NCBI GenBank assembly: GCA_038217285.1
Contig: JBBQPO010000216.1
Coordinates: 1-10,650, forward strand
Length of the DNA: 10,650 nucleotides
From: Chthonomonadales bacterium
Lineage (GTDB): Bacteria > Armatimonadota > Chthonomonadetes > Chthonomonadales > Chthonomonadaceae
Direction of reading: 5' to 3'
The translations under genes and the position numbers were made by a program. This document shows positions 1-10,650 of the stretch, piece by piece (position 1 is the stretch's first letter; each line of letters opens with the position of its first letter). The notes under the pieces were generated by a model, which worked only from the letters and a program-made list of their open reading frames with translations, was not told where the DNA came from and searched no databases.

Positions 1-2213
1 TGGACCGGCGACTCGGTCTCCGCGTTCGCCTGGCCCTGCTCGGTCAGCAACCGGTCCACCTCCCGGCCCGCTTCCAGCGCCTCGTCGTACTGCCCGGCAT
101 GATTGAGCGCATAGACCAGAGACATCCGCGCTTCCAGCATATAATAGGCCATGCGGATAGCCTCCCGGTACTCAACGGCAGCCTGCTTGAACTGTTGCTG
201 CATGCTCAGCAATTCCCCCAGCCCGAAGTGTGCGGACGCGTCGCGGGGGTTCAGCCGCATCGCGAGACGCAGTTCGGACAGCGCCTCCGGGAACTGACGA
301 TCGTGCTTGAGATCATAACCCAACGCGAAGTGCGCGGCGGAGTCGAACGGGTCGAGTGCTACTGCCCGCCGATACTCGGCTATCGCTTCGACCGTCTTGT
401 GCCGCCTATCGAGTACGTCCCCGAGCCAGCGGTTGATCGCAGGGGCGTTGGGCATCAGGTGCTCGGCGGTGCGGTACTCCAATGAGGCTTCGCGCAGGCT
501 GGCGGGGGTGTTCTGAGCAGCCAGCGCGGCGGCCAAATTCCAGTGGAGGAGGGCGTCCGACGGCGCTTTTGCGATTTCGGCGCGCTCCCGCGAGAGGAAG
601 CCGGAAACCACCCCATCGGCCTGCGCTGCAAATCCCGCCGAACGCAGGTTCTCCGCCGCACCGATCGCCTCGCTGGAGTCGTCCCACGGCTCGGCGGCGG
701 CCAGCACGGCGATTTTGCTGAGTGCCGCCGGGTCGTCGTGCCACTTGGGCTGGTACATCTGAAGGCCCCACGCGTAAACCTCCTTTTTGTCCAGGTCCAT
801 GGTGAGCGCCTTCCCGATAGCGTCGGTGGCGCGGCCCTCATCGCCCGCGAAGGTGGCGGTTTCGGCCAGCCGTAACCAGGCGTGGCCTTCGTGTGGGTCC
901 AGCGCCGTTGCCCGCAGATCGGCATTCTCCATTCGGGAATATAGGCTTTGGAGGGTCGTCCATTCCACCGCCGAGATGTCTCCGGCCAGCCGGCCCTGGC
1001 GCAGGTCCTCCGACACATTGGAGAGAGTATAGCCGAGGGTAAGCCAGGCGTCGGGGTCGCCCGGCGCGTCACGGGTGGTCCGTAGCGTTGCCTCCAGCTC
1101 CCCCGCACGTGTTCCCCACACCCGCTGTTGCCATACGTCCGTATGGGCGAGCAGAGCACTCGCCGGATAGCGGGCGAACAGGGTCTGCGTTGCGGCGGCG
1201 TAGGGGCGGAGGGCAGCCGGCTCTTTATAGCCGATATGGGCCAGGACGAGCGCATTGTCGGGAAGTTGCTCCCGCAAGGTCTTCACCAGGCCGGTGAGCA
1301 AGACCTGATCGTTCACGGCGCGTGATCCCAGGTAGAGCATGCCGGCCGCCGGCGAGCGGGCACTGAGGCGCGCGAGAACCGAGAGGTCCGCGTCGTTGAG
1401 GTGGGCTCCCTGGCGGAACGTGTCCAACTGAGTCAGTTCGGCGGGCGACAGGGCCACGGAAGTCGGAACGCGCGGGGCGGGGACGCCAAGCCGGGCATCG
1501 AGCGCCTGCGCCATGGCCGGTAGGCCGTCGAGGACCTGCGCCTCGCTTCCGGTTTGGGTAAGCGGCAGGCCAACCGATTTGCCTTCAGGCAACTGGTACA
1601 GCCCGTAGGTCAGCGTACAGCGCTCCGGAGTGCCGTCGATCGTGCCGCACGCGGCGTGGGTCGCCCCCGTCATGGCGGCCAGCCCAATGGCCTGTTCGGG
1701 GGAAAGGCGAAAATCCTTGCGGCCCATCTCCCGTTGAGCGCGGGCCCGGGACTCCCAGAATGGCGTGCGGCCCAGTTCGGGCTGGCCCGCGGCGACCAGG
1801 TCCAGCCAGCGACCACACTCCGAGCCGAACGCCGCAAGTTCCGGGCTGCCGGCGACCGGGTCGCAGACCACCAGGCCTGCATTGGGCGGGGTGGCCCCAC
1901 GCGGAGCGGGATCGGCGCCGATGGCCCGGCGGGCGACCTCGCCGGTATCGGAGGGACGGGGCGGCAGGGGCGCGTGCTCCACCTGTCGGGAGGGCGACAG
2001 GGCGAGGGTGGCTGCAGAGGCGAACAGCGCCAGAGGGGCGGGCAGGTTTGTGGGCGCGTCCGGTATGGCGCGGAAGGCCGCGATAGGAGATAGACCAGCG
2101 TCCGTGTCCGCCGCCTGATGGCAGCCTGCGAGAAGCGGCAGGGCCACAATCAGCGCGGCAAGGGCAGAGTTTGGCCGGAGCGTTCGATTTCGAGAGCAGC
2201 AGTGCGGGCGCAT
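1..2213 (-). CDS. Tetratricopeptide-repeat (TPR) lipoprotein, partial (3' end beyond the left edge); >737 aa
   Basis: Manual translation from ATG at 2213 (minus strand, GGAGG ~6 nt upstream) is open to position 1. N-terminus MRPHCCSRNRTLRPNSALAALIVALPLLAG-C has a basic n-region, a hydrophobic h-region and a lipobox LAGC (Cys31). TPR-like units include APGDPDAWLTLGYTLS, ALDPHEGHAWLRLA, EAIAEYRRAVALDPFDSAAHFALG, EALSELRLAMRLNPRDASAHFGLG and QAAVEYREAIR. Confidence 0.9.
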   Translation of the reverse strand, partial: MRPHCCSRNRTLRPNSALAALIVALPLLAGCHQAADTDAGLSPIAAFRAIPDAPTNLPAPLALFASAATLALSPSRQVEHAPLPPRPSDTGEVARRAIGADPAPRGATPPNAGLVVCDPVAGSPELAAFGSECGRWLDLVAAGQPELGRTPFWESRARAQREMGRKDFRLSPEQAIGLAAMTGATHAACGTIDGTPERCTLTYGLYQLPEGKSVGLPLTQTGSEAQVLDGLPAMAQALDARLGVPAPRVPTSVALSPAELTQLDTFRQGAHLNDADLSVLARLSARSPAAGMLYLGSRAVNDQVLLTGLVKTLREQLPDNALVLAHIGYKEPAALRPYAAATQTLFARYPASALLAHTDVWQQRVWGTRAGELEATLRTTRDAPGDPDAWLTLGYTLSNVSEDLRQGRLAGDISAVEWTTLQSLYSRMENADLRATALDPHEGHAWLRLAETATFAGDEGRATDAIGKALTMDLDKKEVYAWGLQMYQPKWHDDPAALSKIAVLAAAEPWDDSSEAIGAAENLRSAGFAAQADGVVSGFLSRERAEIAKAPSDALLHWNLAAALAAQNTPASLREASLEYRTAEHLMPNAPAINRWLGDVLDRRHKTVEAIAEYRRAVALDPFDSAAHFALGYDLKHDRQFPEALSELRLAMRLNPRDASAHFGLGELLSMQQQFKQAAVEYREAIRMAYYMLEARMSLVYALNHAGQYDEALEAGREVDRLLTEQGQANAETESPV

Positions 2214-2291: not shown

Positions 2292-2437
2292 CACTCTCCT
2301 GCCCGAAACAGCAGGTCGATTTCATCTCACCCACACTACCTCCCGCACCTAATTTCGGTTTCAGTTTCAAAGTTAGCAGATGCACCGTCCTCTCCCACAC
2401 GGCGCTTCCATTGCATGAAGTGTTGGCGACAGGACGC

Positions 2438-2569
2438 ATGAGGCAAAAGACGATGTATCACCTCGAAGGTTGGCCGGAACCGATCCGGGATGTGCAGGCA
2501 TTTGCAGCAGAGCATCCAACCGGCGCGGTGGTGGCCCATCTCGATGCGGAAGGTTCTCCTGTTTTGTAG
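2438..2569 (+). CDS. Possible small protein or gene remnant (43 aa: MRQKTMYHLEGWPEPIRDVQAFAAEHPTGAVVAHLDAEGSPVL)
   Basis: ATG at 2438 preceded by CAGGA; protein-like composition; followed by a hairpin (AATCGCGA-aacc-TTGCGATT, ~2577-2596). No recognisable family. Confidence 0.3.
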   Translation: MRQKTMYHLEGWPEPIRDVQAFAAEHPTGAVVAHLDAEGSPVL

Positions 2570-2666
2570 GGGTTCGAATCGCGAAACCTTGCGATTGTCG
2601 CGTTGACCCGGGGGACGCCGCCAATTTCCGCGTAAATAATCCCTGGCGCTTTTCGAGATACCAGCG

Positions 2667-2689
2667 TATACTATTGACTGATCAATCAA
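2667..2689 (+). promoter_or_regulatory. Putative -10 box (TATACT, 2667-2672) followed by a TetR-type palindromic operator (2674-2689)
   Basis: TTGACTGATCAATCAA matches its own reverse complement at 14/16 positions. It sits just downstream of TATACT and ~20 nt upstream of the TetR start, the usual layout for TetR autorepression. The -35 element is weak. Confidence 0.7.
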
Positions 2690-3351: not shown

Positions 3352-3367
3352 TTGACTGAACAACCAA
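3352..3367 (+). promoter_or_regulatory. Second putative TetR operator, between the regulator and the adaptor gene
   Basis: TTGACTGAACAACCAA is 14/16 identical to the site at 2674-2689 and lies in an AT-rich intergenic gap. Confidence 0.6.
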
Positions 3368-3420
3368 CCCCAGCGATCAGACGGATAGAACCAGGGAGAA
3401 ACCTCTGGAAAAGGAGCATT

Positions 3421-5043
3421 ATGATGCCGGCGAGCAGGCAGACCGTGGATACAGCCGCCACCGAACCCTCTGGTGGGAGCGCACCCAAGCCCGGCTCCAG
3501 TCTGAAGGGAGCCGTGCCCGGCGACGACGGAGCGGGAGATAAAGCCGGCGCACATCGCAAGTTTCCCGTGCGCATCCTCATCCCCCTGGCGATCCTTGGA
3601 GCGATTGCGGCGTGGTGGTATTTCACCCGCCCCGCGCCTCAGCCGCGCAATCTAATCGCCGTAAGCGGGCGCATCGAAGGCGACGATGCCGCCATTGCCT
3701 CCAAACCCGGCGGGCGCGTGCTGGAGATCCGCGTGCGCGAGGGCGACAGCGTCAAAGCCGGTGACCTGATTGCCGTGATCGACGACGCCCAATTGCGCGC
3801 CCGTGAAGACCAGGCACGTAGCGCCCTGCAGCAGGCGGAGGCGCAGGCCCTGGTGCAGAAGCAGCAGATCCCGGTTCTGGAGCAGCAGCTGGAGCAGAGC
3901 AGGCTGGCGGTAGGGCAGGCTCGACTGGATACGCAGGGCAAAGTGTTCCAGGCGCAGCAGCAGGTGGTCGCCGCCGACGCCAATATCCTGCAGGCGGAGG
4001 CGCGACTCCGGGCCGCACGCCGACAGATCGCCGTGCTGGGGCAGCAGTTGGAGCAGAACCGCCTCGGAGTGGATCAGGCGCGGCTCGATGCCGAGGGCCG
4101 CGTCGCGCAGGCCGAGCAGCAGATCGCGGCGGCGGAGGCGACTCTGGCGCAGGCGCAAGCGCAGCACCATCAGGCCGAAGTGGATGCCAGACGTTACGTC
4201 GTGCTTGCCAACGAGGGCGCCACGTCCCGGCAGACGGCGGAGCAGTACCAGACCAATGCGGCCAGTTTGCTGGCCGTGGAGAACGCCGCGCGGAAGCAGG
4301 TCGCCGCAACCCAGGGCGCGCTGACCACGGCGCGGGCGAACCTGACGAACCCCGCAGTGCGCCGGGCACAGGAGGCGGGCACGCGGGAGCAGATCCAGGC
4401 GGCGCATGAGGATGTGGCTGCGGCCGAGGCCGAGGTGGGCCAGATGAAAGCCATGCGCGCCCAGACGGCCGGCAACCTGACCGCAACCCGCGCGGGCCTG
4501 ACCAACCCCGCAGTGCGCGTTTCCCAGGAGGCGGCCATCCGCGAACAGATCGTACAGGCGCAGTCCACGATTGCGGCCGCACAGGCGACGGCCAAACAGG
4601 CGCGTGCCAAACTGGCCGAGGCGCAGGCGGACCGTAAAGACCTGCGCGTACTTGCGCCGTTCGCCGGGACGGTGGCGACCCGCGTCGCGGAGCCGGGCGA
4701 AGTGCTGGCCCCCGGCGCGACGGTGGTCACCCTCGTGGATCTGAGCAAGGCCTATCTGCGGGGTTACATCCCGGAGGGCGATATCGGGCGCGTCCGGGTG
4801 GGCCAGGAAGCGCGCATCTATCTGGACTCCGCGCCAAACCGGTCTGTGGCCGCCGTGGTGTCCCGTATCGACCCCGAAGCCTCGTTTACGCCTGAGAACA
4901 CGTATTTCCGCAACGACCGGGTTCTTCAGGTAGTGGGAGTCAAGCTCCAGATCCGGGACGGGATCGGCTATGTCAAACCCGGCATGCCCGCCGATGGCGA
5001 AGTGCTGGTCGAGGGCGTATGGCCCGCCGGGAAGAAACGATGA
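3421..5043 (+). CDS. HlyD-family (YbhG-like) efflux periplasmic adaptor / membrane fusion protein with an elongated helical hairpin (540 aa)
   Basis: Start chosen at ATG 3421 (AAGGAG 5 nt upstream) rather than the track's TTG 3352. Features: TM anchor ILIPLAILGAIAAWWYF; SGRIEGD; lipoyl halves (GGRVLEIRVREGDSVKAGDLIAVID and APFAGTVATRVAEPGEVLAPG); long Ala/Gln coiled coil; YbhG-type EASFTPEN motif; C-terminal KPGMPADG. Confidence 0.93.
   Translation: MMPASRQTVDTAATEPSGGSAPKPGSSLKGAVPGDDGAGDKAGAHRKFPVRILIPLAILGAIAAWWYFTRPAPQPRNLIAVSGRIEGDDAAIASKPGGRVLEIRVREGDSVKAGDLIAVIDDAQLRAREDQARSALQQAEAQALVQKQQIPVLEQQLEQSRLAVGQARLDTQGKVFQAQQQVVAADANILQAEARLRAARRQIAVLGQQLEQNRLGVDQARLDAEGRVAQAEQQIAAAEATLAQAQAQHHQAEVDARRYVVLANEGATSRQTAEQYQTNAASLLAVENAARKQVAATQGALTTARANLTNPAVRRAQEAGTREQIQAAHEDVAAAEAEVGQMKAMRAQTAGNLTATRAGLTNPAVRVSQEAAIREQIVQAQSTIAAAQATAKQARAKLAEAQADRKDLRVLAPFAGTVATRVAEPGEVLAPGATVVTLVDLSKAYLRGYIPEGDIGRVRVGQEARIYLDSAPNRSVAAVVSRIDPEASFTPENTYFRNDRVLQVVGVKLQIRDGIGYVKPGMPADGEVLVEGVWPAGKKR
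3865..4182 (+). repeat. Tandem 159-nt (53 aa) intragenic duplication, ascending arm of the adaptor hairpin
   Basis: QIPVLEQQLEQSRLAVGQARLDTQGKV... (from 3865) vs QIAVLGQQLEQNRLGVDQARLDAEGRV... (from 4024); 30/53 aa identical by manual count. Confidence 0.85.
4315..4626 (+). repeat. Tandem 156-nt (52 aa) intragenic duplication, descending arm of the adaptor hairpin
   Basis: GALTTARANLTNPAVRRAQEAGTREQI... (from 4315) vs GNLTATRAGLTNPAVRVSQEAAIREQI... (from 4471); 27/52 aa identical by manual count. Confidence 0.85.
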
Positions 5044-7055
5044 CACCGGCCGGCGCGCTCAGCCAACCCGGCGCGATGCGCCTTGCCGAGGCGCTGCCAC
5101 AGGCGGCCGAACCGGGCGCCGCGATCCGGGTGCGGGACCTGTGGAAACGCTATGGAGCGGTGGAAGCGGTGCGCGGCATCTCGATCGACATCCGGCCCGG
5201 CGAGATCTTCGGCCTGATCGGTCCGGACGGCGCGGGCAAGACCTCCACGTTCCAGATGCTCAGCGGCGTCATGGAGCCGACCTCGGGCGAGATCGCGATG
5301 CTGGGCCTCTCCGCGCAGGGGGGACGTGCGCATGTCGGGTACCTCACGCAGGCGTTCAGCCTTTATCAGGACATGACCGTCCACGAGAACCTGCGCTACA
5401 TCGGGGCCATGCGCAGCCTTACCGACGCGCAGATCGACGAGCGCGGCCGGCATTACCTCGGCCTGTTCGGCATGGATCGGTTCCTGGACCGCCTGGCCGG
5501 ACGGCTGAGCGGCGGGATGAAGCAGAAACTGGCCCTCGCCTGCGCCCTGGTGGCCGCGCCGCGCGTGCTGCTGCTGGACGAGCCCACCACGGGCGTCGAT
5601 CCGGTCTCGCGCCGTGAATTCTGGGACTCGTTGGCGGACCTGTCCTCCAGCGGAATGACCATCGTGGTCGCAACACCCTATCTGGACGAGGCGGAGCGCT
5701 GCACCCGGGTCGCGCTGATGTACGACGGGAATATCCACGCGGTCGACACACCCGCCGAACTGCGCGCCGGTCTGGGCCTGAAGCGGCTGGAAGTGCATAC
5801 TCCGGACCTGCGCCATACCGAAAGCGCCCTGCGCGCCATCCCCGACATTGCGGACGTGCAGCGCTTCGGCGATCGACTGGACGTGATGGTGCAGGACGCG
5901 GAAGCCGGGGAGCGGCAGGTACGTGAGGCGCTCGAGGCCGCCAACATCCCTCTAACCTCCCTGCGCGCCGCGCCGCCGACCCTGGAGAATGTTTTTGTGG
6001 CTACGCTGCGCGCTCAACACCCCGAGAGTGCGCGGAGCGAGCCACACGTGGTCGGGCTTGAAACCCATCCGCATGCGCCGGGTGCTCTGACCGGCGACGT
6101 CGCCTCTATCGCCATCGGGGCGCGCAGACTGGTCAAGAATTTCGGCGATTTCCATGCGGTGAAGGACATCGACCTGGGCATCCGCTACGGCGAGATCTAT
6201 GGTCTGCTGGGCGCGAACGGCGCGGGCAAGACCACCACCATCAAGATGCTCTGCGGCCTGCTGGCCCCCACGAGCGGAGAGATCACCCTGGCGGGCGAGA
6301 CCGGTTCGGCGCGTTCTCCGGCCGTGCGGCAGCGGGTGGGCTATATGTCGCAGAAGTTCTCCCTCTACGACGACCTGAGCATCGACCAGAACCTGGAGTT
6401 CTTCGCCGGAGTCTACGGCGTGCCGGCTTCGGTGCGCCCGCGCAAAAAGCAGTGGATCCTGGAGTTCGCCGGCCTGACGGGCCGGGGCAAAATGCTTACG
6501 GGGGAGCTGCCGGGCGGCTGGAAGCAGCGCGTCGCCTTCGGCGCGGCCATCATGCACGAGCCGCGCGTGCTGTTCCTGGACGAGCCGACCTCGGGCGTCG
6601 ATCCCATCGCCCGCCGCGCCTTCTGGGAGGTGATCAACGATCTGGCCGACCAGGGCGTGGCCGTTCTCATCACCACGCATTACCTGGAAGAGGCGGAGCA
6701 GTGCAATCGCCTGGGCATGATGGTGGCGGGGGAACTGGTGACGGAGGGCACGCCCACAAGCGTCAAGGCGGAGCAGGGCGGCCATCTGCTGAACCTGCGC
6801 ACCGATCAGCCGCAGCGCGCCTCCAACACCCTCAAGACCCGCATGGACCGCTGGCGCGTCTCGCTGTTCGGCGATCAATTGCACGTGGTCGTGGACGAGT
6901 CGCCGGAAGACGGCATCGCGGGCCTGACGCGCATCCTGGGCGAGGCGGGGATCCAGGTGCTGGACGCGGAGGAGCAGTCCTATTCCCTGGAAGACGTCTT
7001 TATCTCGGTGGTGGAAAAGGCCCGTACGCAGGGCAAAGCGGCCGCGGAGGAGTGA
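5040..7055 (+). CDS. ABC transporter ATP-binding protein with two NBDs (YbhF-like; 671 aa)
   Basis: NBD1: GPDGAGKTS, LSGGMKQK, LLLDEPTTGVDP. NBD2: GANGAGKTT, LPGGWKQR, LFLDEPTSGVDP, TTHY. The start at 5040 overlaps the adaptor stop (ATGA); 5019 is an alternative start. Confidence 0.95.
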   Translation: MTPAGALSQPGAMRLAEALPQAAEPGAAIRVRDLWKRYGAVEAVRGISIDIRPGEIFGLIGPDGAGKTSTFQMLSGVMEPTSGEIAMLGLSAQGGRAHVGYLTQAFSLYQDMTVHENLRYIGAMRSLTDAQIDERGRHYLGLFGMDRFLDRLAGRLSGGMKQKLALACALVAAPRVLLLDEPTTGVDPVSRREFWDSLADLSSSGMTIVVATPYLDEAERCTRVALMYDGNIHAVDTPAELRAGLGLKRLEVHTPDLRHTESALRAIPDIADVQRFGDRLDVMVQDAEAGERQVREALEAANIPLTSLRAAPPTLENVFVATLRAQHPESARSEPHVVGLETHPHAPGALTGDVASIAIGARRLVKNFGDFHAVKDIDLGIRYGEIYGLLGANGAGKTTTIKMLCGLLAPTSGEITLAGETGSARSPAVRQRVGYMSQKFSLYDDLSIDQNLEFFAGVYGVPASVRPRKKQWILEFAGLTGRGKMLTGELPGGWKQRVAFGAAIMHEPRVLFLDEPTSGVDPIARRAFWEVINDLADQGVAVLITTHYLEEAEQCNRLGMMVAGELVTEGTPTSVKAEQGGHLLNLRTDQPQRASNTLKTRMDRWRVSLFGDQLHVVVDESPEDGIAGLTRILGEAGIQVLDAEEQSYSLEDVFISVVEKARTQGKAAAEE

Positions 7056-7101
7056 CCGGGAAGCAACGCATGCTCGCATTTCCCGGCTTCTGGAGGGATC
7101 T

Positions 7102-8208
7102 ATGAGACGTATTCTCGCGCAGGCAAAGAAAGAATTGATCCAGTTGCGGCGGGACCGGTTGGCGCTGGTGATGGCCATCGGTCTGCCGCTGATCCTGGTG
7201 ATGCTGCTGGGCAACGCCATCTCGTTGACGGTGACGGATATGTCCATCGTGGTGCAGGACCTGGATCAGACGCCGGTGTCACGCCGATACATCGACGCGT
7301 ATCGCACGTCGCTGACGTTCCATGTCGTTCCGCTGGCCCCTTCGGCGCGTCCGGAGTCGGCTCTGCTCAATAGCCGTGCCCGCGCGGCGTTGATCCTTCC
7401 GGAGCATTTCGAACGCGATTTGCGGCGGGGACGCAGTGTGCAGGTGCAGATGCTGGTGGACGCCACCGACGCCAACACGGCGAATGTGATTCGTGGCAGC
7501 GTCGCGGCGATCACCAGCCGCTTCGAAAGCCATCTGCACCCGAAAATAGCGGGTGCGCCGCTCCTACTGGATACACGGCTGTGGTTCAATCCGGGGCGCA
7601 AAAGCAATCTGTACATCGGGCCGGGCGCGTTTGTGGTGAGCCTTTCGCTGCTACCGCCGCTGCTGATGGCGCTCGCCATGTCGCGCGAAAAGGATGGCAA
7701 GACGATCCTGCAGGTCTATGTGTCGGGCATCTCGGCGCATGAATACCTGCTCGGTAAGATCCTCGCCTACTACCTGCTGACGACCGTGGCGTGGACGCTG
7801 GCTTTTTTGCTGGTCACCACCACGATGGGGCTGCGCGTGCTGGGCGATCCGACCATGTTCCTGGCGGGCAGTCTGGCGTTTCTTTTTGCCACGGTGACGT
7901 TCGGCGCGATGCTGGGTTCACGAGCGCCGGACCAGGCGACCGCCATCCAGTTGGTGCAGCTTATCGCCTTCATCCTGGCTTTTCTGCTGTCGGGCTTCAT
8001 CTATCCGCTGACCAATGTGCCCATCCAGATCCGGTGGATTTCGGGCATCACGCCGGCGCGCTACTATATCGACATCGTGCGCGACGCCTTTCTACGCGGC
8101 GGTGGCTGGGCGGCGGAGTGGGGACAGGTGCTCTCGCTGCTGGTGCTGGGCCTCGCGCTTTACGGCATGACCTGGCGGCAGATGCGCCGGATGCAGGTGA
8201 AGGCATGA
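7102..8208 (+). CDS. ABC-2 type transporter permease (YbhS-like; 368 aa)
   Basis: KKELIQLRRDR N-terminus, one TM, extracytoplasmic domain (VQMLVDATDANTA, WFNP), REKDGKT motif, several TMs, LSGFIYPL and PARYY. GGAGGG precedes the start. Confidence 0.94.
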   Translation: MRRILAQAKKELIQLRRDRLALVMAIGLPLILVMLLGNAISLTVTDMSIVVQDLDQTPVSRRYIDAYRTSLTFHVVPLAPSARPESALLNSRARAALILPEHFERDLRRGRSVQVQMLVDATDANTANVIRGSVAAITSRFESHLHPKIAGAPLLLDTRLWFNPGRKSNLYIGPGAFVVSLSLLPPLLMALAMSREKDGKTILQVYVSGISAHEYLLGKILAYYLLTTVAWTLAFLLVTTTMGLRVLGDPTMFLAGSLAFLFATVTFGAMLGSRAPDQATAIQLVQLIAFILAFLLSGFIYPLTNVPIQIRWISGITPARYYIDIVRDAFLRGGGWAAEWGQVLSLLVLGLALYGMTWRQMRRMQVKA

Positions 8209-8284
8209 CCTTGCTTCTGTTCCAAACGCCGGACATGCTCGGGGCTTGCTCGCGCGGGACTCGCCCCGTGGAGATGGAGACGCC

Positions 8285-9439
8285 ATGAACACAAACAGCA
8301 CTTTCGGCAGTCGTCTCTGGGCGCTGCTACGCAAGGAGTTTGCGCAGATCGGCCGCAACCGGTCGCTGATCATTTCCCTGATCATCCCGCCGACCCTGCA
8401 GATCATCCTGTTCGGCTTCGCCTTGAACCCGACCGTGAACCGTCTGCGTCTGGGGGTGGTGGACGAGAGCCGCAGCCACCCGAGCCGCGACCTGACGTCG
8501 GCCTTCACCGCGAACGGAACCTTCGTCGTCACCGGCGCGTTTGCGGGCGTCGAGCCCCTCGGGACGGCGCTGCAGCGCGGCACATTGGATGCCGGGTTGG
8601 TGATCCCGGCGGACTATGCGCGGCAGCGGAACCACAAATCGGGACCCGTGCAGGCGCAGTTTCTGCTGAACGCCATGGACGCCAACACGGCGGGCATTGC
8701 GGCAAGTTACGCCGGCTCCATCGCCCAGGCGTTCAATGGCAGCACTCTCGACGTGCAATCGCATCCCCGCAACGGACCTTCCGGTCTGGCGGACGCGCAT
8801 CTCAAGGCGCAGGTGAACCTGCTTTATAATCCCGGCCTGATCTCCGCCTGGTTTGTGGTGACCGGCACCTTCGGCATTCTGCTGATCCTGAACGGCTCCC
8901 TTGTGGCGACGACCACGATGAGCCAGGAGAAGGAGAACGGCACGCTGGAGCAGTTGCTGATGACCCCGGCGGGCACCACGGAGATCATCCTCGCCAAGCT
9001 CATGCCGCTGTTCCTGCTGCTCATGCTGGACGTCGGCCTGGTGCTGGTGGTGTGCGATCTGGTCTTCCATGTGCCGGTGCGCGGCAGCCTCTGGCTGATC
9101 TTCCTGGCGGGTGCGCTCTGCATTCTGACTGGCATCGGGATCGGCACGTTCATCTCCACGTACACCAAATCGGGCCTGCAGGCCAAGCTGCTGAGCTTCT
9201 TCGTCAACCCGCCGATGGCGCTGCTTTCCGGCGCGACCACGCCGGTGGAAGCGATGCCGAAGTGGATGCAGCCGCTGGTGAACCTCAACCCCGTGCGTCA
9301 CTTCTCCCTCATCGCCCGCGGCGTCATGATCAAAGGCGTGGGCATGGACGTGCTCTATCCCAACTTCCTGGCTCTCCTCTGCTTTGCCGTCCTCCTCCTC
9401 GGCGTCAGCATCACCCGCTTCCGCAAGCAACTCGCCTGA
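8285..9439 (+). CDS. ABC-2 type transporter permease (YbhR-like; 384 aa)
   Basis: LRKEFAQIGRNR, QIILFGFA, LYNPGL, EKENGTLEQLLMTP, LLSGATTPVEAMPKWMQ, NPVRHF. Start chosen at ATG 8285 with GGAGA upstream. Confidence 0.94.
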   Translation: MNTNSTFGSRLWALLRKEFAQIGRNRSLIISLIIPPTLQIILFGFALNPTVNRLRLGVVDESRSHPSRDLTSAFTANGTFVVTGAFAGVEPLGTALQRGTLDAGLVIPADYARQRNHKSGPVQAQFLLNAMDANTAGIAASYAGSIAQAFNGSTLDVQSHPRNGPSGLADAHLKAQVNLLYNPGLISAWFVVTGTFGILLILNGSLVATTTMSQEKENGTLEQLLMTPAGTTEIILAKLMPLFLLLMLDVGLVLVVCDLVFHVPVRGSLWLIFLAGALCILTGIGIGTFISTYTKSGLQAKLLSFFVNPPMALLSGATTPVEAMPKWMQPLVNLNPVRHFSLIARGVMIKGVGMDVLYPNFLALLCFAVLLLGVSITRFRKQLA

Positions 9440-9739
9440 ACACCCCCTTCGCCCAACGAGGAAATCAAGGTTCCAGGCCGCATGAGAATTACGATTTTCG
9501 GACGCAACCTTCGGCCCACCTACTGAAGTTAAATATACGCTCGTCAAGAGACCTGTATCGACTGCAGGATTCCGCGTTCGCTCGGTTCAATAAAGAAATC
9601 GAAAGAGTGATAAAGTGTCAAGCCCTTGGGGCGGTTAATATTGGCCGTTGGTTCGCATCGACTGCGGGCTTGAATTTAAGCACAACGTGCGAGAGATATC
9701 GGTCATTCCTTCATCCATTCAGGGAGTAATGAAACACAA

Positions 9740-10650
9740 ATGACTAAGATGGCCCGAAATGAAGTACTTCGGCTTATAAAGCAGGCAAAGCGAGAGAATG
9801 CTACAGAGCTAGACCTTTCCGGAACCGGCTTGACGACGCTGCCTGCGGAAATGTGGCAACTCACGGCGTTGGAGACATTGCTCCTTGCTAACAATCGCTT
9901 GACGACGCTGCCTGCGGAAATCGGGCAACTCACGGCGTTGCAGAGATTGAACCTTTTTGGAAACGGCTTGACGACGCTGCCTGCGGAAATCGGGCAACTC
10001 ACGGCGTTGCAGACATTGGACCTTGCTAACAATCATTTGCCAGACGATCTGAAAGCTGCTTACGACGTAAGTGTTCCGACCTTGCTTAATTACCTCAGGC
10101 GTCTTGCTGAAGACAGCGAAATGCTCTATGAGATCAAACTCGTTCTTATCGGTGAAGGGACAGTAGGCAAAACGACGCTGCTGGATGCGCTGCTGGGAAA
10201 CCCGCTGATAAATAAACGCAATTCGACGGAAGGAATGGAAATTGCCCGTACACAGATACCACTCCCGCATCCGGACGGCGACCATACGCTGCAATGCAAC
10301 GCCTGGGATTTCGGAGGACAGAAAATCTATCGTGTCCAACATCAATTCTTCTTTAGCAGGAACGCAGTCTATCTTCTTGTATGGGACCCGCGCTCCGGAC
10401 CGCAAAAATGCGACGTAGATGGATGGCTTGAACGCATTCAACTGCGCGTGGGTGAGGAGGCACGGGTGTTGGTCGTCTCCTCTTATGCCGCAGATGAGAG
10501 GCATCCGCCGCGCATAAGCGAAACCGAGATTCGGGAGAAGTACGGCAAACTTGTGTATGGCTTCTATGCGGTGGATGGGATGGAATATGCAACAGACCCC
10601 CGCATGAACAGCCTGCTCGCCGACCTTAAATTAGAAATTGCCAGGGCAGC
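9740..10650 (+). CDS. Roco-family protein (LRR-Roc GTPase; COR domain expected downstream), partial (>303 aa)
   Basis: Manual translation: cap MTKMARNEVLRLIKQAKRENATELDLSGTG; 23-aa LRRs (LTTLPAEIGQLTALQRLNLFGNG); linker LLNYLRRLAE; Roc motifs EIKLVLIGEGTVGKTTL (G1), STEG (G2), WDFGGQKIYRVQHQFFFSRNAVYLLVWD (G3 region). Open to the right edge. The start could instead be ATG 9749. Confidence 0.93.
   Translation, partial: MTKMARNEVLRLIKQAKRENATELDLSGTGLTTLPAEMWQLTALETLLLANNRLTTLPAEIGQLTALQRLNLFGNGLTTLPAEIGQLTALQTLDLANNHLPDDLKAAYDVSVPTLLNYLRRLAEDSEMLYEIKLVLIGEGTVGKTTLLDALLGNPLINKRNSTEGMEIARTQIPLPHPDGDHTLQCNAWDFGGQKIYRVQHQFFFSRNAVYLLVWDPRSGPQKCDVDGWLERIQLRVGEEARVLVVSSYAADERHPPRISETEIREKYGKLVYGFYAVDGMEYATDPRMNSLLADLKLEIARA
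9830..10036 (+). repeat. Three tandem 69-bp LRR-encoding repeats with high DNA identity
   Basis: Units start at 9830, 9899 and 9968, each beginning TTGACGACGCTGCCTGCGGAAAT. Pairwise identity by manual count: R1/R3 62/69, R2/R3 58/69, R1/R2 56/69. Confidence 0.95.

Follow-up and report, generated by a model that had tools for sequence, protein, structure and literature searches.

We analysed a window of 10,650 nt, which is the whole of contig JBBQPO010000216.1 (C216) in a draft Chthonomonadales genome bin (G000; 459 contigs, completeness 95.27%, genome GC 0.604), with regard to the Roco gene that begins at position 9740 and is broken off by the contig end. The reading we prefer, with a probability of roughly 0.6, is that we have here the sensor part of an ordinary bacterial Roco protein encoded by a single gene, in which the units of a short leucine-rich repeat (LRR) array are kept alike by duplication and/or gene conversion and vary on the β-strand face in the way usual for their class. 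Nothing indicated a programmed or donor-fed mechanism of diversification. A first-pass annotation of the same DNA had proposed a diversifying, immune-like receptor, reshuffled by recombination between its repeats or with paralogous arrays. Its Roco identity, face-restricted variation and homogenisation within the gene were borne out, but the immune, diversifying and donor-fed side of that reading gained no specific support in our analysis, and the idea behind it is already in print.

The window covers only the first third of the gene, the full protein being estimated at ~850 residues. The parts of the gene, together with the DNA preceding it, are as follows (CTD denotes the tail domain after COR-B, and CtRoco the Roco protein of Chlorobaculum tepidum).

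9440..9739, no strand: intergenic stretch of low GC (0.49, against 0.62-0.68 upstream), where the shift in composition starts
9740..10648, + strand: first 303 codons of the LRR-Roc-COR-CTD (Roco) gene, open at the contig end (10650); from the open reading frame (ORF), its translation and Pfam
9740..9829, + strand: N-terminal capping helix (aa 6-18) and first LRR β-strand (aa 23-25), as predicted in the AlphaFold2 (AF2) model
9830..9898, + strand: LRR unit R1, 2 nt off R2 and R3 within the first 42 nt (codons 8-9); from repeat search and unit alignment
9899..9967, + strand: LRR unit R2, holding the sole purely synonymous codon difference (codon 22); from unit alignment
9968..10036, + strand: LRR unit R3, with the first 42 nt as in R2; from unit alignment
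10037..10129, + strand: LRR C-terminal cap and linker helices (aa 102-110 and 112-123) before Roc, as predicted in the AF2 model
10130..10648, + strand: Roc G-domain, aa 133-246 by Pfam, the fold running on to the contig end; from Pfam, the alignments to relatives and to CtRoco, and the AF2 model

The translated protein (P0001) matched LRR_8 (E 1e-16) and the Roc domain PF08477 at aa 133-246 (E 2.6e-20, 73.2 bits against a cut-off of 27; 75.7 bits in the genome scan), and the AF2 model of its 303 residues had a mean pLDDT of 89.2 and a Ras-like Roc part. The P-loop (G1; aa 138-145, nt 10151-10174) and the DxxGQ motif of switch II (G3; aa 190-194, nt 10307-10321) were intact, and G138, G143, K144, D190, G193 and Q194 were invariant among 36 aligned relatives; the coordinates of the motifs were derived manually from the translation, the alignments to CtRoco and to the relatives, and the AF2 model. 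The LRR of CtRoco is presumably much longer than the four β-strands of the window protein. CtRoco (PDB 6HLU, 8R4B-D, 3DPU) has the same order of N-terminal LRR, Roc and COR and the same G1 and G3 motifs; the window Roc aligned to chains 3dpu and 4wnr at E 3e-19 to 9.5e-19, and the full-length relative P0021 aligned to 6hlu and 8r4b across LRR-Roc-COR-A at E ~1e-62. The two differ at the G4 position (aa 247-252, nt 10478-10495), where the NKxD of CtRoco faces a stretch that keeps Asp and has lost Asn and Lys, and in the ~220-aa CTD, which matched no PDB chain by sequence, full-length CtRoco included. To judge from its deviant G4 position, this Roc subfamily may have a nucleotide specificity other than that of CtRoco.

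The homologue search returned 2,118 matches among 8,000 scored candidates. The closest full-length relatives were P0021 (883 aa; 65% identity over 100% of the query) and P0031 (907 aa, locus L018; 67% over 93%), and these two and the orthologue locus L016 share the domain order LRR, Roc, COR-A, COR-B, with ~220 residues following COR-B in P0021 and P0031. The source bin gave 0 matches to COR-A in the family scan, and tblastn with P0021 and P0031 did not find the 3ʹ part of the gene in it. In a second bin (G018), contig C675 (3,143 nt, locus L005) opens ~2 nt past the last base of the window, continues the reading frame and encodes COR-A (E 4e-29), COR-B (E 4.5e-14) and then the same tail as in the relatives; its composition was also close to that of the window Roco part (GC 0.546 and 0.524, GC at third codon positions 0.58 and 0.57). 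We take C675 to be the 3ʹ part of the window gene. A Roco-type gene, as named at first pass, is thus supported at the level of sequence, by LRR and Roc (Pfam) in the window and by COR-A and COR-B in the relatives and on the contig continuing the frame. Two assemblies stop at the same base in the Roc-COR junction and the COR contig starts ~2 nt on, with no overlap; this common break might stem from a gap in the coverage of shared data or from a branch between variants.

The evidence that carries the preferred reading lies in the repeat array. The repeat search gave three copies at 69-nt spacing, with units starting in codon register at 9830, 9899 and 9968 and spanning 9830-10036, and Tandem Repeats Finder reported 9828-10034 with a period of 69, 3.0 copies, 84% matches, no indels and a score of 316. 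Units share 56-62 of their 69 nt, the differences amounting to 13 for R1/R2, 7 for R1/R3 and 11 for R2/R3; all seven between R1 and R3 fall in codons whose amino acid changes (8, 9, 15, 18 and 23), and codon 22 of R2 carries the only purely synonymous codon difference across the array. Variable nucleotide columns number 15 of 69, with 2 of 42 in the first block and 13 of 27 in the last (Fisher p = 3.2e-5), and variable codons 9 of 23, taking up all six x positions of the LxxLxLxxNx segment and 3 of the 17 positions elsewhere (p = 8.3e-4). This clustering in the last 27 nt and at the x positions is far beyond chance, and every checkable detail of the pattern described at first pass (three 69-nt units, a near-constant first 42 nt, differences in the last 27) held in the repeat programs and the unit alignment. 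The LRR as a whole has four β-strands, formed by one degenerate unit and the three 23-residue units. The modelled strands at aa 46-48, 69-71 and 92-94 correspond to unit positions 16-18 and the short helices to unit positions 6-10, which places the variable codons in and just after the β-strand and the constant block on the convex side; the assignment of the x positions to the β-strand face therefore agrees with the model.

Array DNA was compared for three genes (the window, L016 and L018), and the protein-level comparison of the family adds P0021. Units of one gene differ at 6-22 of 69 nt and units of orthologues at 23-43, the synonymous codons of the scaffold are gene-specific in each of the three arrays, and the number of LxxLP units is 3 in the window, 4 in P0021, 4 in L016 and 5 in P0031. 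Because the units are homogenised relative to orthologues and their number differs, intragenic duplication or conversion has acted, and the array has undergone concerted evolution or repeated lineage-specific duplication. To this extent the proposal of recombination between units stands. Its other half, an exchange with paralogous arrays, is not supported: at the DNA level no paralogous array was found in G000 or G018, as neither the constant block nor the array recurs in G000 (best foreign match 19 nt, E 0.95) or in G018 (best match 30 nt at 83%). Neither a reverse transcriptase nor a template repeat, as in a diversity-generating retroelement, was seen among the window ORFs, and this was not taken further. 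The suggestion that the short array is a contracted state was not supported either, as all four family members carry short arrays of 4-6 β-strands.

The block structure, with 42 constant nt ahead of 27 variable ones, is peculiar to the window array and not general. In the youngest unit pairs of the orthologues, the first 42 and last 27 nt hold 5 and 1 differences, respectively, for R1/R2 of L016, and 5 and 3 for R1/R2 of L018. Variation restricted to the face is a general feature of this LRR class, of which the window array is not an extreme member. A positional profile was drawn up for the 116 relatives in which a regex defined three or more units: of the unit pairs within a protein, a fraction of 0.68-0.75 differed at positions 16, 18, 20 and 21 and 0.55 at position 23, against 0.22-0.49 at positions 2-13. 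The mean unit identity of the window array (0.74) ranked 22nd of 116, and in 104 of the 116 the closest unit pair was as alike as that of the window or more so, some relatives holding many identical units. The best PDB matches of the LRR part were the LIC LRR proteins of Leptospira (4U08, 4U09 and 4U06; E 7.7e-78 to 1.7e-54 for P0021), which share the 23-residue unit length and the consensus with our protein, as do other LRR proteins of the LxxLPxxIGxL type (SHOC2, LRRD1); all of these differ from it in being LRR-only or fused to other domains, in having more units and in lacking Roc-COR.

In the preferred reading the domain order is N-cap, four LRR β-strands, Roc, COR-A, COR-B and a CTD of ~220 residues. 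Lineage-specific tandem duplication and/or intragenic gene conversion would have made the three units and would keep them alike, and the residues that differ are the solvent-exposed ones of the β-strand face, those variable throughout the LRR class. By analogy with CtRoco and LRRK2, the protein is probably a GTP-controlled switch. For CtRoco, the accessible portions of two papers (PMC11052575, PMC6337361) describe a GTP-dependent dimer-monomer switch and a movement of the LRR relative to Roc-COR; if the window protein behaves likewise, COR would mediate a nucleotide-dependent dimer-monomer cycle and the LRR would move relative to Roc-COR. The short LRR could recognise a ligand or partner or else dock onto Roc-COR itself, and the CTD might pass on or modulate the signal.

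The tail after COR-B was traced as a domain in two places.

L005:972-1643 (224 aa), and P0021 aa ~662-883: post-COR-B domain (CTD) of ~200-220 aa

The CTD of L005 occurs in 586 representative clusters at E<=0.001 and in 221 at E<=1e-10, nearly always behind COR-B. Architectures were sampled for 40 of 150 listed clusters, of which 20 were full Roco proteins, with an N-terminal LRR, NB-ARC (P0168), HSP70 (P0226) or none of these; 14 were COR-only pieces, 5 had no Pfam domain and 1 combined DUF4062 with the tail. In P0147 a TIR domain follows the CTD, and because of this and of the sampled architectures the domain seems to extend the Roc-COR core rather than to serve as the terminal effector. It matched no Pfam family at E<=0.01, no PADLOC model, and no PDB entry by sequence or profile (the full-length chain of CtRoco included), and the ESM Atlas gave no usable match. 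Searches with its structural model, which is of moderate confidence (pLDDT 78.4), found no related fold: nothing reached E<=0.001 in Foldseek, and VIA-align peaked at a Z of 3.8. The domain has an invariant Trp-Cys pair, an invariant C-terminal Cys and two nearly invariant His, one of them in Cys-x2-His, which suggest a metal site, possibly for zinc. We regard the CTD as a candidate new domain family that deserves a family definition; it may or may not be among the 24 domains of Kaur et al. 2021 (PMC8195603). The COR part anticipated at first pass has been found as COR-A and COR-B on C675, through the inferred join, whereas the effector domain expected behind it was not recognisable by Pfam, PADLOC, PDB sequence and profile searches, Foldseek or VIA-align.

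The Roco gene has a GC of 0.52, against 0.62-0.68 in the upstream genes and 0.604 in the genome. The step from 0.62-0.68 to 0.50-0.53 is abrupt and lies at ~9440, the end of an ABC-2 permease gene; the DNA 3ʹ of the gene on C675 has a GC of 0.51 and the surroundings of the orthologues ~0.53. No Rfam match at E<=0.1, no tRNA and no repeat marks the boundary, and no promoter-like site was found on the + strand in 9300-9900. With P0021 as the query, 7 of 41 related genomes gave any match, G000 among them; matches at the level of orthologues occurred in G000 and G018 only, and in none of the 4 congeners searched, one of which is 98% complete. As far as these searches go, the gene is accessory; to judge from composition, it lies at the edge of a low-GC segment and was probably acquired horizontally.

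The genes upstream in the window encode a TPR protein, HlyD, a double ABC ATPase and two ABC-2 permeases, and the neighbours at the orthologue loci are a HicB-like gene with a small ORF, EF-Ts and S2, or a sulfatase. Other features noted are given below.

Window 3352-9439: exporter operon of an HlyD-family adaptor, a fused double ABC ATPase (678 aa) and two ABC-2 permeases
L005 1833-2333 (- strand) and 2330-2677 (- strand): HicB-family antitoxin-like gene (PF05534, E 1.2e-8), overlapping a 115-aa ORF with no Pfam match
G000 contig C24 ~132-1037 (- strand) and G000 contig C224 3-410: LRR-only proteins of the 23-residue class with a Roco-type cap/linker

The exporter ATPase gave strong PADLOC matches (mad3, E 1.7e-49) that are generic and should not be counted as defence. 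The HicB-like gene and the 115-aa ORF downstream of the Roco gene on C675 may be a toxin-antitoxin pair. Apart from the Roco protein, G000 holds four more, diverged proteins of the same LRR class; two of them end in the Roco-type cap/linker and look, from their sequences, like Roco sensor arms without the GTPase.

Several observations weigh against regarding the gene as an ordinary one. The constant block has 0 synonymous differences in ~34 pair-summed synonymous sites while the face codons reach a pN of 0.53, and relative to the silent divergence of the whole unit, with its one certain synonymous event, the face positions of the window are much changed; if the units were very recent whole-unit duplicates, an omega well above 1 at the face positions would be implied. 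The contrast between block and face codons could reflect recent duplication with adaptive change, conversion sparing (or selected against in) the face codons, or relaxed constraint, three histories that are inseparable because there are only three units. Further, the class is predicted to consist of counter-invader receptors in the accessible text of PMC8195603, the CTD is without recognised fold or function and may yet act as an effector, and the foreign composition and the HicB-like gene on the apparent continuation contig weakly recall mobile or defence neighbourhoods. Finally, the link between the window and C675 is itself inferred, with no assembled sequence across it.

On an alternative reading, which we consider unlikely, an anti-phage or anti-parasite sensor-switch protein would use the LRR as its specificity surface, with a concave face reshaped by diversifying selection together with unequal crossing-over or conversion. 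The confinement of variation to β-face positions, the difference in unit number among orthologues, the accessory and compositionally foreign nature of the gene and the lower conservation of the LRR than of Roc (57% against 75% identity to P0021) would all fit it. So would the literature, within the portions accessible: Kaur, Iyer, Burroughs and Aravind (eLife 2021; PMC8195603) predict a counter-invader role for bacterial proteins with an AP-GTPase (Roc) and COR, and rapidly evolving LRRs in them; Kaur et al. 2020 (PMC7159879) place AP-GTPase and COR in conflict systems; and in Runella a Roc-COR-CHAT protease accompanies and activates a bacterial gasdermin (bioRxiv 10.1101/2021.06.07.447441). 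The architecture of LRR, AP-GTPase and COR described by Kaur et al. 2021 is present here, but the defining feature of that class, as the accessible text has it, is an effector at the C-terminus (TIR, caspase, trypsin, GT4, DRHyd, FGS, EADs), none of which was recognised in our protein, and the class often has many paralogues per genome, whereas one Roc exceeded the Pfam cut-off in the 459-contig draft G000 (two further matches lay below it), hence no repertoire of paralogues.

Whole-unit Nei-Gojobori pN/pS was 2.94, 1.99 and 1.26 (one-sided Fisher p 0.11, 0.45 and 0.46), so that the excess of dN over dS between the three window units was not significant. At the face positions pN/pS was 2.31 in the window, a value that would favour immune diversification and rests on 2.7 path-averaged synonymous differences, but 0.71 in L016 and 1.20 in L018, three arrays in all; the L016 figure uses 3 of its 4 units, the diverged C-cap unit being left out. 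Scans of metagenome and genome collections yielded 2 + 2 loci including the window's own contig, insufficient for a site model. The lack of donor arrays in G000 and G018 and the presence of the same face-variable pattern across the whole LRR class also speak against an immune specificity surface. Nor was a defence context found: at the window and at the orthologue loci no defence neighbourhood was recognised, the neighbours being the ABC exporter or housekeeping and unrelated genes (EF-Ts/S2, sulfatase), and in PADLOC-DB 2.0 the window protein had two marginal P-loop matches only (E 0.003 and 0.006), the full-length relative P0021 and the CTD none.

Brown-algal LRR-ROCO genes and fungal NLRs had been named as parallels at first pass. 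The likeness lies in near-identical 23-residue units with variation on the concave face, as far as the accessible sources describe them. In the brown algae, however, the LRR exons are separate and shuffled, the gene families are large, and positive selection is statistically supported, at four concave-side sites by PAML, according to the accessible part of PMC11378527; in the window, a single prokaryotic gene holds three units, paralogous arrays were not found in G000 or G018, and the excess of dN over dS is not significant.

Similarly unlikely, in our view, is a combination of gene conversion with unit-specific purifying selection, in which the face residues are fixed for one partner or for docking on Roc-COR and the rest is homogenised, with no diversification. 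In three of the four family members (the window, L016 and L018), positions 8-9 of the first LxxLP unit are taken by a bulky hydrophobic pair, whereas I-G occupies them in later units, so that some unit-specific residues have survived homogenisation. The two blocks also group the units differently, R2 being identical to R3 in the constant block and R1 closest to R3 in the variable one (5 nt against 11), which fits a mosaic history, and in the closed state of CtRoco the LRR touches the C-terminal domains (accessible part of PMC11052575). Against a fixed interface, the face residues are not kept unit by unit between orthologues, the incongruence of the blocks rests on two adjacent nucleotides of R1, and a four-strand LRR is short for wrapping Roc-COR. 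A bolder version of the immune idea seems quite improbable to us: a horizontally acquired single-gene Roco immune sensor, with fast turnover of the LRR face by duplication or conversion and selection, whose CTD would be a new signalling or effector module found in hundreds of bacterial Roco lineages.

The relation of the two bins deserves a remark. Contig C61 of G018 (locus L020) is the window reverse-complemented, with the same length and ends and 2 differences (at 6905 and 9788). We rejected it as a second strain with an identical array, since it is the same whole contig with the same ends and is not independent; it therefore gives no independent evidence on the stability of the repeats. In 64 kb sampled from six other G018 contigs there was no near-identical counterpart in G000, and G018 is placed in another genus than G000, so that in one of the two bins the contig is probably mis-binned. 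As the same contig was binned into the genomes of two organisms, the host of the Roco gene is uncertain. Among public reads, one run had 26% of the sampled words, and its k31 contigs covered pieces but bridged neither the array nor the contig end. Two short records in the same run belong to a related but different gene.

An assembly artefact, with the array collapsed or mis-ordered by short reads or the contig chimeric near 9440, is the least likely of the alternatives: the units do share exact blocks of at least 42 nt in a k141 contig of 10x cover, GC falls abruptly at ~9440, the same contig recurs in two bins that are otherwise unrelated in their sampled DNA, and the gene is broken at the contig end with its 3ʹ part absent from G000, but every 141-mer of the array spans a variable block, so that a collapse requires further identical units, frame, predicted fold (pLDDT 89) and homology are continuous along the array and over 9440-9740, up to a normal start of the gene, the orthologue arrays are similarly short, and two assemblies yield the same contig.

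Bacterial LRR-Roc-COR proteins have mostly been studied as models of human LRRK2, and we know of no experimentally shown cellular function for those without an added effector; in the limited library of literature searched, no experimental test of an effector-less LRR-Roc-COR protein was found. If the fast LRR face were indeed an immune specificity surface, the gene would offer a simple, testable bacterial counterpart of NLRs built on a GTPase switch. The evidence does not set it apart in this respect, as a variable face on a homogenised scaffold is the norm of the repeat class, and for the class the immune idea has already been printed as a prediction, as the accessible text of PMC8195603 has it. 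The more useful by-product of the analysis is the post-COR domain, which, having neither a Pfam model nor a recognisable fold, recurs in 586 clusters.

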